Source of the DNA: a virus
DNA length: 64,000 nt
Direction: 5' to 3' (one strand)
IMG/VR virus record: IMGVR_UViG_3300047483_000537
Span: 32,600-96,599 of that record
The notes below the pieces were generated by a model. It was given only the letters and a program-made list of their open reading frames with translations. It was not told the origin of the DNA and made no database searches. Below are positions 3,095-49,157 of the stretch, piece after piece (the first letter of the stretch is position 1; every line of letters starts with the position of its first letter). The position numbers and the translations under genes are program-made.

Positions 3095-3853
3095 TTAATT
3101 ATTATAAGCTAAAATAACTTGCTTACACATTTGTGATCTAACAATATCTTCATCACGAAAACTAACGACACTAACTCCTTCAATATGTTGTAAACGCTTT
3201 ACAGCGTCCATAAGACCTGAATCTGAAATGTCTGTTTGTTTTGGATCTCCTGATAGGATTACTTTACAGTTTTTTCCGATGCGTGATAAGAGCATCTTGA
3301 ATTCTGTTTTGGTTAAGTTTTGGGCTTCGTCTACAAGAATAATACAATTCTCAAAACTAGCTCCACGCATAAACCCCAGCGGTTTAGGATCAATATCTTT
3401 AGCCCTCAAGGAATATTCATAAAAACCTTTGCCAAGTGCTTTAGTAAACACTTGGTCAAAAGGTTGTAGATATGGTGCATATTTCTCGTCCAGCTCTCCT
3501 GGCAAGAATCCCATACCGCGTCCTGTTTCTACGTTAGGACGTGTTAGAATAATTTTATTTACACGTTTGTAATACAGTTCTGCTGCAGCGTAACTAGCAG
3601 CTATATATGTTTTACCTGTACCGGCGCTGCCTATGCCAAAGATAATATCTGAATCTTCGATTGCATTTAGGTACTCGCTTTGAATGAAGTTTAGTGGCTG
3701 AACTTCTTTAAACGTATAATTACGTTGAGGTATTGGTTCTGCAAACCCTTCCTCGTGCTCTTTACGCAGCCTGGCTTTTTCCTCATTAGATATGTGGTTG
3801 CCGGACTTTTTACTTGGAAATGTGCGATGTGTTTTACCACTATTTCTTGCCAT
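3095..3853 (-). CDS. phoH: PhoH-like ATPase
   Basis: GSAGTGKT Walker A, GFLPG, FMRGASF, LVDEAQN, SGDPKQTD. Confidence 0.95.
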   Translation of the reverse strand: MARNSGKTHRTFPSKKSGNHISNEEKARLRKEHEEGFAEPIPQRNYTFKEVQPLNFIQSEYLNAIEDSDIIFGIGSAGTGKTYIAASYAAAELYYKRVNKIILTRPNVETGRGMGFLPGELDEKYAPYLQPFDQVFTKALGKGFYEYSLRAKDIDPKPLGFMRGASFENCIILVDEAQNLTKTEFKMLLSRIGKNCKVILSGDPKQTDISDSGLMDAVKRLQHIEGVSVVSFRDEDIVRSQMCKQVILAYNN

Positions 3854-41679: not shown

Positions 41680-42003
41680 ATGACTGCAAAAACTGTAAAC
41701 TATACCGCTGAACAAACTGCCAAGATGGTAGCCGACTATGAGGCTGGCGTAACTGTAGAACAAATGGCTACAGAATTGGGTAAGACTGTTCGTTCTATTG
41801 TTGCCAAGCTCTCGCGTGAGAAGGTATACAAGGCTAAGACTTACGTTAGCAAAACTGGTGAGGCTGTAATTAAAAAAGATACAGTTGCCGACTACATTGG
41901 TGAGGCTTTGGGCTTGGCTGAGGCTGATACAGAATCGCTAACCAAAGCTAACAAAAATGCTTTGAAGGCTATTGCTGATTTCATCAAGGCTGAAAAGACC
42001 TGA
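41680..42003 (+). CDS. T5 A2-like DNA-binding protein, paralogue 1
   Basis: NYT.EQT..MVADY.AG...LGKTVRSIVAKLSRE.VYKAK...ESLTKANK; HTH-like. Confidence 0.65.
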   Translation: MTAKTVNYTAEQTAKMVADYEAGVTVEQMATELGKTVRSIVAKLSREKVYKAKTYVSKTGEAVIKKDTVADYIGEALGLAEADTESLTKANKNALKAIADFIKAEKT

Positions 42004-45800: not shown

Positions 45801-46127
45801 ATGACTGCAAAAACTGTAAACTACACCCCCGAGCAAACCACCAAAATGGTGGCCGATTATTTGGCTGGCGCTACTGCCGAAACAATCGCCGAAAATTTGG
45901 GCAAAACTGTCCGTTCGGTTGTGGCTAAATTGTCACGCGAAGGCGTTTATAAGGCTAAAACTTATGTTTCAAAAACTGGCGCTCCAGTTGTGAAAAAAGA
46001 TGCTCACGCCGATGCAATCGGCGCAATTCTCAAATTGTCAGAAAATGAAATCGAATCTCTGACAAAAGCCAATAAAACGGCACTGGAAAAAATCTTTTCC
46101 GCTTTGGCTAATTCAAAGCCAATTTAA
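45801..46127 (+). CDS. T5 A2-like protein, paralogue 2
   Basis: Same MTAKTVNYT start and motif set as 41680-42003. Confidence 0.7.
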   Translation: MTAKTVNYTPEQTTKMVADYLAGATAETIAENLGKTVRSVVAKLSREGVYKAKTYVSKTGAPVVKKDAHADAIGAILKLSENEIESLTKANKTALEKIFSALANSKPI

Positions 46128-46560: not shown

Positions 46561-47049
46561 GATATTTTACAATTTTTTACAATTGCGTTGTTTTTTCACA
46601 ACATGAATACTTTGGTAGCACTTTTTCAGCCTGCATGAAAAATGAGTACTTTAGTACTACAGCAGCTTCGCTGCGCCAGTGGAAAACCTTCAAGTGCAAA
46701 ATCTTGATGGTTCCTGCGCCAGTGCGCGGTCAAGTGCAAATTCTTGCATGTGTGCGCTGCGCCAATATTATACAGTGCCAAAGCAATATGTGTCAAGAGA
46801 AAATTTTTTTATTTGAAGCGCGATCCCAAGTTTTGTATAATATTTATATTGATTGAAAGGAATGGACGATGACAGACAGCGAATTTTTCCGCCAAATTCA
46901 AGAGGACTGGTTCCACGAATTTGCTGGCGCAGAACTATCCGAAATCTTCGTGTGTACCAACCCACACATCGAAAATTTTGAATTTGACGATGTTCCCTTT
47001 TAACAGTATAATAATATCTTTAACAGCGCAGAAACCAACCAAAGGACAT

Positions 47050-47361
47050 ATGATGACTGAAGCTACCAAAACCAACTACACCCCAGAACAAACCGCTGAA
47101 CTCGTGCAAGGCTACCAAGCTGGCGAGACCGTGGAAGTTCTGGCCACCCGCATGGGCAAAACTGTTCGCTCAGTGGTTGCCAAACTCTCACGCGAAGGCG
47201 TGTACGTGGCAAAAACCAAAGCTACCGGCGTGGCACGCGTCAAGAAAGCTGATCTGGTTGACCAACTTGCACACAAGTGCGGTGTGGCTCCAGAAGTGTT
47301 TGAGTCGCTGGAAAAAGCCAACCACGATGTGCTGGAGGCACTTGTGGCACGCTTGCAGTGA
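47050..47361 (+). CDS. T5 A2-like protein, paralogue 3
   Basis: AAGGA SD; NYTPEQT...GKTVRSVVAKLSREGVY...ESLEKAN. Confidence 0.7.
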   Translation: MMTEATKTNYTPEQTAELVQGYQAGETVEVLATRMGKTVRSVVAKLSREGVYVAKTKATGVARVKKADLVDQLAHKCGVAPEVFESLEKANHDVLEALVARLQ

Positions 47362-47391
47362 TTGCCATGCCTGAGGGTCAAGAAATATTGG

Positions 47392-47420
47392 CTTGATCTT
47401 CAGGGTTAATCACTGTATAA
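47392..47420 (+). promoter_or_regulatory. sigma70-type promoter
   Basis: TTGATC-N17-TATAAT with extended TG; no ORF downstream. Confidence 0.75.
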
Positions 47421-47428
47421 TATATACT

Positions 47429-47558
47429 TAGACAGTCGGGAAAGGCTTTAAAAATGACAAAATCTTTGTCGAGCCTGTTTAGCGACAGCAGCCCACCTCA
47501 CTAACCAGCAATTAGATTGCAACTATCTGTGTGCTAGCCTGTTCGCAACGACTGTTTA
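47429..47558 (+). ncRNA. putative ~130-nt structured small RNA
   Basis: Begins near the predicted TSS; ends pair (TAGACAGTCG/CGACTGTTTA); internal AGGCTT-GACAAA/TTTGTC-GAGCCT hairpin. Confidence 0.55.
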
Positions 47559-47565
47559 TTTTCTC

Positions 47566-47594
47566 TTGATTTAGTTACCGTTTTACTGTATAAT
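47566..47594 (+). promoter_or_regulatory. sigma70-type promoter upstream of the ribozyme
   Basis: TTGATT-N17-TATAAT with extended TG. Confidence 0.75.
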
Positions 47595-47746
47595 TATTAT
47601 ATTGGGTGACAGCGGTGCAAAAGCAGCGTCTTAATTGTGGGAAATTACCAACCGAGCCACAGCCCCAACGAATTCGGTGTTATGCGACCAATTTGCGAAT
47701 TGGATAACAACTTAATTGCGACCGAAGCTAGTCGCAGCCAACTTAA

Positions 47747-47846
47747 CCCTCTGATGAGCTGATGCAAGTTCAGCGAAACTCTAAACCTCAGTGCCAGTTT
47801 GCAGACACCTTCCCAATTGTCTCGCTGGCGCAGTTTAGGGTCAGGG
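47747..47846 (+). ncRNA. type I hammerhead ribozyme
   Basis: Stem I CCCT/AGGG; core CTGATGA; stem II GCTGA/TCAGC; GAAA; stem III CTCTAAAC/GTTTAGGG extended by GTGCCAGT/GCTGGCGC and AGACA/TGTCT; GUC triplet with cleavage after C47842. Confidence 0.92.
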
Positions 47847-48440
47847 CGAAAACCAGGAGCTAGTCTCCTGAAATGAGTAGTCTTAGTGAGCTCTCAACAC
47901 TATACCCGAGTCGCCTTATCCTGTACCGGCGTAAAATGGTCTTAATATCTAGGTTGGTAGCCTATATCTACCCGAGTAATAGCAACCCGTAAGGTGGCTG
48001 GTTACCCTACCTATAAGGGCACATGTAGGTCCTGCACGTGACCCTAAACCGTAGCCGTTTTGGCCCTCGTTACTGTGGCTCGACCCTAAGTCGTAAAAAG
48101 CGGCGCTGGCAACCCCAGTGCCACAGTGGTTGATGACCCCAACAATCTGTCCAGGTCGTGACATAAAACATCCAGGGCTGTGGAGCCGAACCCATACCAC
48201 GAGTGATACTCGAACCTCATCAGTGCAGGCGTTGGAAGCGTAGCACACAAAGTCTCACCTAATGTGGAACGCAGTCGCCAACTCAACCAAGTTGGGCAGT
48301 CTAGTACGATTTAGGGTCAAGCAGTAAGTGCAAGTGGTTCTTGCCGGTTTAGTCTTGAACAGAGCAACTAAAAACTTGTTAGTACCTGGACGCAGGCATA
48401 GTTCACGAGCCCCCAAGATTAGCTGTCTTAGGGGCTTTTG
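47843..48440 (+). ncRNA. putative large (~600 nt) structured RNA, family unassigned
   Basis: No credible ORF, GC-richer than flanks, about ten hairpins, long-range helix 48039-48053/48305-48319, bounded by the ribozyme cut site and a terminator. Confidence 0.7.
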
Positions 48441-48444
48441 TTTT
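48408..48444 (+). terminator. intrinsic terminator
   Basis: AGCCCCCAAGAT-TAGCT-GTCTTAGGGGCT-TTTGTTTT. Confidence 0.8.
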
Positions 48445-48535
48445 GCTTATTCTGCGCCATTATACCAGTGCAAAACCTTTGTTGTCAAGTGTGTTTTCCG
48501 CAACTTGACCCTAAATTAACGCAAACAGCACACGC

Positions 48536-48572
48536 AAAAAAGCCCCCATTAACGCAAATTAATGGGGGCTTT
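48536..48572 (-). terminator. intrinsic terminator of the - strand early block
   Basis: AAAAAAGCCCCCATTAA-CGCAAA-TTAATGGGGGCTTT. Confidence 0.85.
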
Positions 48573-48601
48573 GTGCTATTTGAGTAAATTAACCGCGATT
48601 A

Positions 48602-48925
48602 TCACGATTTAGGGTCAGATTGGGTAGCTTTTTCTAAGGCACGTTCAATCATAACTAACACAGTCTTGTTGACTTTCTCCAGCGACTCCAACAACTCTAA
48701 GTTAGCGTCTAGGAGTGTGGCAATGCGTTCAATATGCTCGGCTTTTTTCACCGGAATTTCACCACGCTTGTTTAAGTAGGATTTTTTCTGGTAGACTCCA
48801 AGGCTCGATAGCTTGGCAATTATGCTACGCTCTGGCACTTCGAGCTGAGCACTTAATTCCAGCACCGAAACGCCGGAGTTGTAATCTTGGACCATACGGT
48901 CACAAATTTCTTTGGTGTATCTCAT
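48602..48925 (-). CDS. divergent A2-like protein, paralogue 4
   Basis: YT..MVQDYNSG...ERSIIAKLSSLGVY...GEIPVKK...ESLEKVNK. Confidence 0.65.
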   Translation of the reverse strand: MRYTKEICDRMVQDYNSGVSVLELSAQLEVPERSIIAKLSSLGVYQKKSYLNKRGEIPVKKAEHIERIATLLDANLELLESLEKVNKTVLVMIERALEKATQSDPKS

Positions 48926-48935
48926 TTGGCCTCCA

Positions 48936-49157
48936 TCACAGCCAAGGTAAGTCTGGACGATCGCGAGACTCTGTGCGTCTGCGTAGACGATCTAAATCGG
49001 ATTTATGAATAACTGGAGATAACTTTTTTAAGTCCTCAGTTACTAAGTTGTATTCTAGCCGTTGTAGGCAGTACTCTAAGTGTTTAGTTTCTGCTAAACT
49101 TTTCTTGTATACTGCATATAAGTCTATGTATTTATCTACAGTATTTACAGTAACCAT
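48936..49157 (-). CDS. hypothetical protein
   Basis: 73-aa ORF coupled to its neighbours. Confidence 0.55.
   Translation of the reverse strand: MVTVNTVDKYIDLYAVYKKSLAETKHLEYCLQRLEYNLVTEDLKKLSPVIHKSDLDRLRRRTESRDRPDLPWL

Follow-up and report, generated by a model that had tools for sequence, protein, structure and literature searches.

We analyzed a 64,000-nucleotide window (bases 32600–96599) of the 96.6-kb IMG/VR phage contig IMGVR_UViG_3300047483_000537, whose estimated completeness is 91%. The subject of this study is a gene-free stretch of ~1.2 kb (positions 47362–48601 of the window) that harbors a predicted hammerhead ribozyme followed by a ~600-nt non-coding RNA. Minus-strand structural genes, including those for the tape measure, the major tail protein, a fused protease/major head protein, and the large terminase, lie at 2.4–41.5 kb, and small plus-strand genes occupy 41.7–47.4 kb. 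Beyond the gene-free stretch are minus-strand genes, including that for thymidylate synthase, and then a tRNA cluster. The large terminase is ~50% identical to the terminase of Vibrio-infecting Demerecviridae, and gene order in the contig is that of phage T5 (AY692264), in which plus-strand pre-early genes are followed by a 1.8-kb untranslated injection-stop region and then by minus-strand early genes. By this comparison, the contig derives from an uncultured T5-like phage, and the RNA locus separates its first-injected (pre-early) genes from its early genes. An initial annotation, made from the letters of the window, had put the locus at the edge of the pre-early region, and gene order agrees, aligning it with the T5 injection stop.

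Twenty-four related loci were retrieved through the 146-aa protein that flanks the RNA locus, and more members were added by a pattern scan of IMG/VR. The retrieved comparison loci are designated by L-numbers, of which L069 is T5. The untranslated stretch is 67–83% identical, in blocks, across the retrieved relatives, and the flanking protein is 62–86% identical in the relatives used to compare the 3' RNA. Searches of cultured phages with blastn and tblastn revealed no relative of the RNA locus or of the flanking 146-aa protein. All functional statements that follow derive from sequence comparison; the alignments of the 3' RNA are patchy, and tests of its structure concern local helices only.

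Positions 47566–48444 form a promoter-to-terminator unit that lacks a conserved open reading frame (ORF) and corresponds to an RNA of ~850 bases (Table 1). Transcripts from promoter P2 are expected to start near 47601–47604, and an invariant sequence, GGGTGACAGCGG, directly follows this promoter. The longest ORFs in the 3' segment, examined on both strands of 18 RNAs (17 relatives and the window), are no longer than those in shuffled sequence, and plus-strand ORFs of the 3' RNA encode 23–59 amino acids, which is under the shuffle means. A 99-aa minus-strand ORF in the window is not conserved and is matched in fragments only; PHROG and Pfam gave nothing for it. By these measures, the 3' ~600 nt is non-coding. 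The initial annotation had described a promoter, ~140 nt of hairpins, a complete type I hammerhead with its cut site, and ~600 nt that is devoid of a credible ORF and ends in a terminator. Comparison with the relatives upheld each of these elements: the promoter and terminator are conserved, the leader that precedes the ribozyme (47604–47746) is conserved and contains three invariant sequence blocks, and the hammerhead coordinates match.

Table 1 Features of the RNA locus and its surroundings. Coordinates refer to the window, except those of tRNAs, which refer to the comparison loci named.
Feature	Position	Strand	Remarks
Small proteins	41680–42003, 45801–46127, 46921–47361	+	46921–47361 adjoins the RNA gene
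Promoter P1, sigma-70-type	47393–47421	+	TTGATC-17-TATAAT; 10/12 consensus; hexamers invariant in 9 relatives
Promoter P2 of the ribozyme-bearing RNA	47566–47594	+	TTGATT-17-TATAAT; 10/12 consensus; both hexamers kept in 17/17 aligned relatives
Leader three-way junction	47604–47665	+	Helices GGGU/GCCC, GCG/CGU (variable hairpin), UGUGG/CCACA (variable loop)
Leader remainder	47666–47746	+	GUUAU/AUAAC helix with variable hairpin; invariant CAACUU; hairpin 47720–47738
Type I hammerhead ribozyme	47747–47846	+	Predicted cut 47842/47843; full invariant core, covarying stems
Hammerhead stem I	47748–50/47843–45	+	Open
Hammerhead core CUGAUGA	47751–57	+	GAAA 47775–78; GUC 47840–42; C17 at 47842
Hammerhead stem II	47758–62/47770–74	+	Closed; 5 bp
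Hammerhead stem III	47778–86/47833–41	+	Closed; ~50-nt insert with distal covarying hairpin 47804–08/47817–21
3' RNA, ~600 nt	47843–48444	+	Non-coding, modular; 5'-OH after predicted cleavage
Hairpin TAGTG/CACTA	47884–47902	+	UAGGGA/UCCCUA or UAGUGA/UUACUA in relatives; GC/UA swap; GC8/GU7 at one pair (21:30)
Hairpin CGCC/GGCG	47912–47931	+	Conserved loop UUAUCYKGUAC; 98% paired; 2 pairs with double changes
Hairpin GGTAG/CTACC	47956–47972	+	Double changes at 5/5 pairs
Forward motif copy TGACCCTAAACCGTA	48039–48053	+	More forward copies 48080–48095; degenerate 48135–48142
Hairpin GGCT-GTGG-AGCC	48176–48187	+	Covaries: GGCA/UGCC, GGGU/ACCC in relatives
Single reverse motif copy TACGATTTAGGGTCA	48305–48319	+	~125 nt before terminator end; one such copy in 16/17 relatives
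Hairpin GCAAG-TGGTT-CTTGC	48330–48344	+	Double changes at 4/4 pairs
Intrinsic terminator	48409–48444	+	Stem 48409–17/48427–35, then T run; conserved in all aligned relatives; covaries at distal pairs
Minus-strand promoter	48459–48488	-	Perfect TTGACA-18-TATAAT; directed into the RNA gene; retained in most aligned relatives
Outer forward motif copy	48506–48515	.	17 nt upstream of minus-promoter -35
Bidirectional terminator	48539–48572	.	Beyond the RNA gene
Small protein (107 aa)	48602–48925	-	Adjoins the RNA gene; convergent with the plus-strand flanking gene
Outer reverse motif copy	48604–48617	.	Encodes last residues S-D-P-K-S of the 107-aa gene
tRNA-Glu(UUC)	L008 4977–5051, L009 4987–5061, L010 4866–4940, L016 5359–5433		Embedded in leader
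tRNA-Glu(UUC)	L019 4986–5060, L043 10812–10886, L045 415–489		Embedded in leader

Comparative analysis revealed strong conservation of the ribozyme. Its core (CUGAnGA, GAAA, and GUC) is invariant in 23 distinct sequences except at N7 and H17 (GUA in three). Among the 24 loci retrieved through the flanking protein, 18 contain CUGAnGAG, a 5-bp stem II, CGAAAC, a long stem III, and GUC in corresponding positions. Compensatory changes are seen among these 18 loci in stems II and III and, in L021, in stem I. RNAalifold recovered the hammerhead three-way junction unaided from the 23 distinct sequences, in which 95.8% of cells are paired, compared with 77.1% in shuffled controls (none of 500 reached the observed value) and ≤44.6% when the pairing is slid. 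Double changes occur in 16 of the 22 hammerhead pairs in this set. A second set of 20 distinct sequences, found via the leader motif, is 90.3% paired versus 69.9% when shuffled; in both sets all four hammerhead helices are 86–100% paired, and double changes are found at 16–17 of the 22 pairs. Pair 38:99 is UG in 17 sequences, and this G:U pair marks the plus strand. The G10.1–C11.1 and A15.1–U16.1 pairs, an NUH cut site, and an open stem I are all present. A covariance model built from the hammerhead alignment found the ribozyme once, and only once, in each of five near-complete genomes (this one and four relatives) and did not find it in T5 or in the T5-like Vibrio phage 70E37.1. From its core and covarying stems, we regard the hammerhead as genuine and of type I. 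Loop II (UGCAAnU) is also conserved. A candidate partner for a loop II–leader pseudoknot, AACUU in the leader, does not covary with variants of the loop.

Helices of the 3' RNA were assessed by block-wise RNAalifold and by pair counts compared with shuffled and slid controls. The three hairpins of 47869–48009 are 91% paired, versus 76% in shuffled and ≤45% in slid controls, with double changes at 9 of 15 pairs. The hairpin at 48330–48344 together with the terminator is 90% paired versus 80% when shuffled, and slid versions of the tested 3' helices reach ≤59%. Because G:U pairs would be A:C on the opposite strand, they point to the plus strand as the structured one. Nearly unvarying single-stranded blocks lie between the hairpins, and the length of the 3' RNA varies among relatives from 284 to 726 nt through insertion of modules and tandem duplication. 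In the diverged lineages L042, L049, and L057, the layout of promoter, leader, hammerhead, RNA, and terminator persists, and the 3' RNA (450–600 nt, with no conserved ORF) is unalignable. Judged by conservation and pairing, the 600 nt after the cut site specify a conserved plus-strand RNA that is non-coding and locally structured.

The initial annotation had listed a series of helices in this segment and had proposed a check for covariation among homologues. By RNAalifold and pair counts, the hammerhead, five local hairpins, and the terminator covary. Two of the listed helices, TAGTG/CACTA and GGTAG/CTACC, show double changes and stand, whereas CCTAC/GTAGG falls where almost every aligned relative has a gap. 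The candidates CAGGAG/CTCCTG, TACTGTGGC/GCCACAGTG, GGCGCTGG/CCAGTGCC, CGAGT/ACTCG, and CCAACT/AGTTGG are present in the sequence and were either not tested or lack covariation. A 15-bp long-range helix between 48039–48053 and 48305–48319 had also been claimed. The helix is present, but its arms are forward and reverse copies of one motif with the core GACCCTAA. In 16 of 17 RNAs, one to four forward copies are followed by exactly one reverse copy located 110–150 nt before the terminator. Because the motif is invariant, covariation can say nothing for or against this helix, and its inner flanks pair for 2–8 extra positions, which is about what the motif's own extended consensus predicts. The layout thus stands, while the helix is weaker than claimed; we do not count it as independent evidence of RNA structure. 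A second hammerhead that uses the reverse copy as its substrate was considered and rejected, since the copy stays UUAGGGUC in loci where stem III has changed (L003, L004, L011, and L044).

The most conserved part of the locus, as judged from the alignments, is the 5' leader junction and not the 3' RNA. No variation is seen in the base helices or the junction strands of the first 62 nt, where two distal elements are free to vary. The exact junction motif occurs in 54 IMG/VR contigs, and the hammerhead model was positive in 26 of the 32 leader-motif loci that had not been seen previously. Relatives contain a ~150-nt insert and/or tRNA-Glu(UUC) in the part of the leader equivalent to 47666–47746. 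Seven loci have this tRNA in the leader, as part of the same transcript. The ACCA terminus of the L008 tRNA is immediately adjacent to hammerhead stem I, and the remaining six tRNAs lie upstream of the ribozyme, either close to it or ~100 nt away. Loci that lack the tRNA keep ACCA before stem I. The presence of tRNA-Glu in the same transcript points to a stable-RNA operon.

Rfam covariance models of described large RNAs, with ROOL, GOLLD, OLE, tmRNA, RNase P, and introns among the families covered, gave no match up to E = 10 across 47300–48700, and seven related loci gave no match to a large-RNA family up to E = 0.5. At gathering and permissive thresholds, Rfam returned tRNAs and noise only from the window, T5, the Vibrio T5-like phage, and the seven relatives; four unrelated contigs searched alongside yielded a twister-P5 ribozyme, in L034. 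In the literature searched, no paper associated a hammerhead with Demerecviridae, and none reported this RNA. By these searches, the RNA belongs to no described family, in line with the initial annotation, which could not assign it to tmRNA, RNase P RNA, or an intron.

The explanation that best accounts for these results as a whole, and which we consider probable, is that the locus is a dedicated non-coding RNA gene in a lineage of uncultured T5-like phages, situated at the inner edge of the pre-early block. In this model, host RNA polymerase would start at the sigma-70 promoter P2 (and also at P1, upstream) and would transcribe, in order, the invariant 62-nt junction leader, the type I hammerhead, and the modular RNA of ~600 nt before stopping at the terminator. 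Once made, the hammerhead would fold and cut after C47842, splitting the transcript in two. The 5' RNA (~240 nt here) would consist of the leader and the whole ribozyme and would end in a 2',3'-cyclic phosphate, and the 3' RNA (~600 nt) would start with a 5'-OH at 47843 and end in the terminator hairpin. Hammerhead chemistry yields a 5' product with a cyclic phosphate and a 3' product with a 5'-OH; because the ribozyme is of type I, almost all of it would stay on the 5' fragment. RNase E, where it depends on the 5' end, acts poorly on 5'-OH termini, and 3' exonucleases are stopped by either a cyclic phosphate or a terminator hairpin. In hosts with RNase E and 3' exonucleases, this end chemistry would shield both pieces, so the locus most likely yields stable RNAs at an early stage of infection. 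The locus is thus most likely a stable-RNA operon expressed from first-step DNA by the host polymerase. We infer cleavage, the nature of the ends, stability, and timing from the sequence.

Several observations weigh against this explanation. The Rfam hammerhead models give only 16 bits; the best match, to Hammerhead_3, scores 16.2 bits versus a gathering threshold of 48.5 and covers only 47730–47780. The Rfam check proposed in the initial annotation accordingly produced this partial match and none of full length. The ~50-nt insert in stem III is probably the reason for the miss; Rfam also misses compact relatives of the same hammerhead subtype in L034 and L038. Stem I comprises just 3–6 bp and contains a C-A mismatch in many members, and no conserved tertiary contact was found for loop II. 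With such a stem I and no loop II contact found, fast cleavage at physiological Mg is not assured. Each strand of the 3' segment folds more stably than its shuffled versions (z of -2.0 for the plus strand and -3.9 for the minus strand), which makes fold energy uninformative on the strand. A perfect promoter (48459–48488, minus strand) reads antisense into the RNA gene. Moreover, 6 of the 54 leader contigs (L102, L106, L117, L121, L123, and L125) lack a detectable hammerhead, even in unfiltered searches. L102, L117, L121, and L123 nevertheless keep the junction, an RNA of ~500 nt, the same 3'-end block, and the terminator, as well as the minus promoter and the outer motif copies. Since these ribozyme-less loci keep the 3' end, cutting is not essential to the locus everywhere, and the locus cannot exist solely for ribozyme-driven maturation of the 5' end. 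The proposal in the initial annotation that the ribozyme matures the 5' end of a large RNA is therefore retained in part: the type I hammerhead is genuine and the 3' RNA is predicted to start at 47843, but some members of the family do without it. Across the contigs compared, the constant parts of the RNA family are the junction and the 3' end, and the ribozyme appears as a frequent but dispensable internal module. Finally, copies of the repeated motif are found outside the transcript and beside two promoters, which suggests a DNA-level layer.

This last point leads to the alternative that survives best, although we consider it distinctly improbable: the locus would be mainly a DNA-level element, either a counterpart of the T5 injection stop and terminal-repeat end or an operator array, with the transcript secondary. 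Its working parts, in the same improbable scheme, would be clustered GACCCTAA sites bound by one of the flanking small DNA-binding paralogues. The untranslated injection-stop (iss) region of T5 lies at the end of the left terminal repeat (AY692264 9140–10936; Davison 2020, bioRxiv 10.1101/866236). The gene-free stretch resembles this region in its place between plus-strand pre-early and minus-strand early genes, its gene-free length of 1.2–1.8 kb, its richness in direct and inverted repeats, and a terminator-like hairpin followed by GCGC, which in T5 is the site of the repeat end and of the major nick (L069 5730–5750). By analogy, CTGCGCC after the RNA terminator may mark the repeat end or a nick here. 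This sequence lies within 48448–48488, just past the terminator, and abuts the -10 box of the minus-strand promoter. Just right of its repeat end, T5 contains eight same-orientation copies of TGTGCAAATCCGAC (L069 5750–6499, which is AY692264 9749–10498), and this array of direct repeats is a positional analogue of the motif cluster at the RNA locus.

The motif is indeed clustered. Its core, TTAGGGTCA, occurs 9 times in the window versus 0.48 expected, with 5 copies at the locus (47835–48617), where the wider pattern GACCCYRA occurs 7 times. Relatives contain 6–10 motif copies at the locus, in both orientations and also outside the transcript beyond the terminator, and in most members the ribozyme cut site is itself a reverse-type copy. 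The sequence of the motif is invariant while its RNA pairing context varies. Reverse-type copies are located 12 nt upstream of the -35 box of P1 (TTGAGGGTCAAG, 47372–47383) and 17 nt upstream of that of the minus promoter (TTTAGGGTCAAG, 48504–48515), in the same orientation relative to each promoter; this arrangement looks like an operator or activator site. The two proteins that flank the RNA gene are paralogues of each other and of a third upstream copy (tblastn), and they show weak matches to the PHROG families "D5-like regulator" and "DNA binding protein". The small proteins encoded at 45801–46127 and 41680–42003 show weak GcrA-like Pfam matches.

In contrast, a hammerhead functions only as RNA, and covariation or conservation is found in the promoter, the terminator, and at least six hairpins, the G:U pairs being those of a single strand. 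Unlike the T5 iss, the stretch contains no DnaA boxes (TTWTNCACA) within 47000–49000 and no DNA similarity to phage records; it has its own strong promoters and RNA-level covariation, and T5 is without a hammerhead. Nor is there a clear genome-wide site. The motif is present in 17–25 copies per genome versus 4–7 for the control in five genomes, an over-representation of 2–3 times with a sense bias of 32:7, but many copies elsewhere encode Asp-Pro-Lys in frame at conserved positions in proteins. Hence GACCCTAA was dropped as a dispersed promoter, a Chi-like site, or a set of antisense targets, and only the cluster at the locus is treated as special. The RNA and DNA layers may simply coexist.

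Hammerheads are known in phage and prophage transcripts, and the processing of long transcripts is their published reading (Perreault et al. 2011, PMC3088659; Rfam clan CL00010). The ribozyme described here is like phage type I hammerheads in its full catalytic core, its three helices, and its position within a long phage-encoded transcript. It could accordingly be an ordinary processing site, with the downstream 600 nt serving as a long untranslated tail or as a target of the antisense promoter. The same subtype (loop II UGCAAnU and AACCC before the core) does stand directly 5' of ribosome-binding sites and ORFs in the unrelated contigs L034 and L038. We nonetheless find this explanation very unlikely, because no plus-strand ORF precedes the strong terminator, the unit has its own promoters, and the tail contains conserved blocks and covarying hairpins even though the flanking protein shows just the modest identity given above. 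Unlike phage type I hammerheads, the ribozyme also carries the ~50-nt stem III insert, falls below Rfam thresholds, and is located inside a non-coding RNA gene rather than between protein genes. That the ribozyme instead frees a tRNA-Glu-bearing 5' part for tRNA maturation, the window copy being a remnant that lost its tRNA, is scarcely credible, for despite the position of the tRNA at or near stem I in seven loci and the ACCA kept in tRNA-less ones, the window and most relatives lack the tRNA yet keep the ribozyme under selection, and the cut would leave a structured trailer of ~100 nt and a cyclic phosphate on the tRNA side, hindering 3' trimming.

As a dedicated non-coding RNA gene, the locus invites comparison with ROOL and GOLLD, the large ornate RNAs of phages and prophages (Weinberg et al. 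2017, PMC5737381; cryo-EM, Nature 2025, PMC12286853). Like them, it specifies a conserved phage-encoded non-coding RNA of 500–800 nt that is sometimes found beside a tRNA gene. Unlike them, it matches neither of their Rfam models, consists of local hairpins and repeated modules as far as shown, and contains an internal ribozyme predicted to cleave itself. The predicted 3' RNA is also reminiscent of the product of the glmS ribozyme, in which self-cleavage sets the 5'-end chemistry of the downstream RNA and thereby governs its decay. In Bacillus, the 5'-OH marks the glmS mRNA for decay by RNase J1. The downstream RNA here differs in that it is non-coding and would be stabilized, as expected in RNase E-type hosts.

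As to the role of the RNA, we can offer a guess, itself rather unlikely: it might be a scaffold or decoy that binds a protein through the invariant single-stranded blocks and the repeated GACCCUAAG modules. A more elaborate speculation, quite doubtful when its parts are taken jointly, is that the T5-like untranslated region at the end of the first-injected DNA serves in this lineage as the gene for a new class of large phage RNA. The three-way junction would be its ligand- or protein-binding core, and the halves made by the ribozyme would be held together by the GACCCUAA and UUAGGGUC copies. The resulting particle would arise from first-step DNA in the first minutes. It would contribute to host takeover or to the changeover to second-step DNA transfer, perhaps through sequestration of a host nuclease, of a defence protein, or of one of the flanking phage DNA-binding proteins.

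Two-step injection of T5 DNA has been studied for more than 50 years, and to our knowledge the untranslated injection-stop region has so far been read solely as a DNA signal. If the equivalent region in a sister lineage is a strongly promoted, conserved RNA gene with a ribozyme, as the comparisons indicate, a role for RNA at the injection step becomes testable. With at least 54 contigs, the family represented by the locus enlarges the small set of large phage RNAs that have no known function. The locus also provides a natural case of a hammerhead located inside a non-coding RNA, not between genes, with ribozyme-less variants available for comparison.

The region upstream of P2 contains a second conserved element. 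P1 lies 173 nt upstream of P2 and precedes a separate conserved stretch of ~150 nt (47428–47565) that contains the invariant blocks CAGUCGGGAA and ACCAGCAAUU.AUUGCAA and a hairpin whose GGGC/GCCC arms change together. An ATG within the stretch opens frames that differ in phase and length among relatives, for which reason the stretch is probably another small RNA.

Variants of the hammerhead were noted in several loci. L009, L015, and L024 contain a 60–80-nt insert in stem II that includes a forward copy of GACCCTAA. A hammerhead-like string further downstream in L019 was rejected because its stems do not pair. In IMGVR_UViG_3300043436_004120 (100,412 bp; L010/L048 and L059), the leader–hammerhead locus is found at both ends (near 532 and 99964) with differing stem III; these could be diverged copies of a terminal repeat or a mix of strains. 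Among cultured phages, a compact hammerhead core of weak similarity was found in just three, all Pseudomonas phages. L038 contains three compact hammerheads of the same loop II subtype as the ribozyme described here, and L034 contains two (2463–2491 and 3102–3130), each directly 5' of a ribosome-binding site and ORF. L034 also contains a twister-P5 ribozyme at 1188–1246 on the minus strand, which scores 47 bits and is above threshold.

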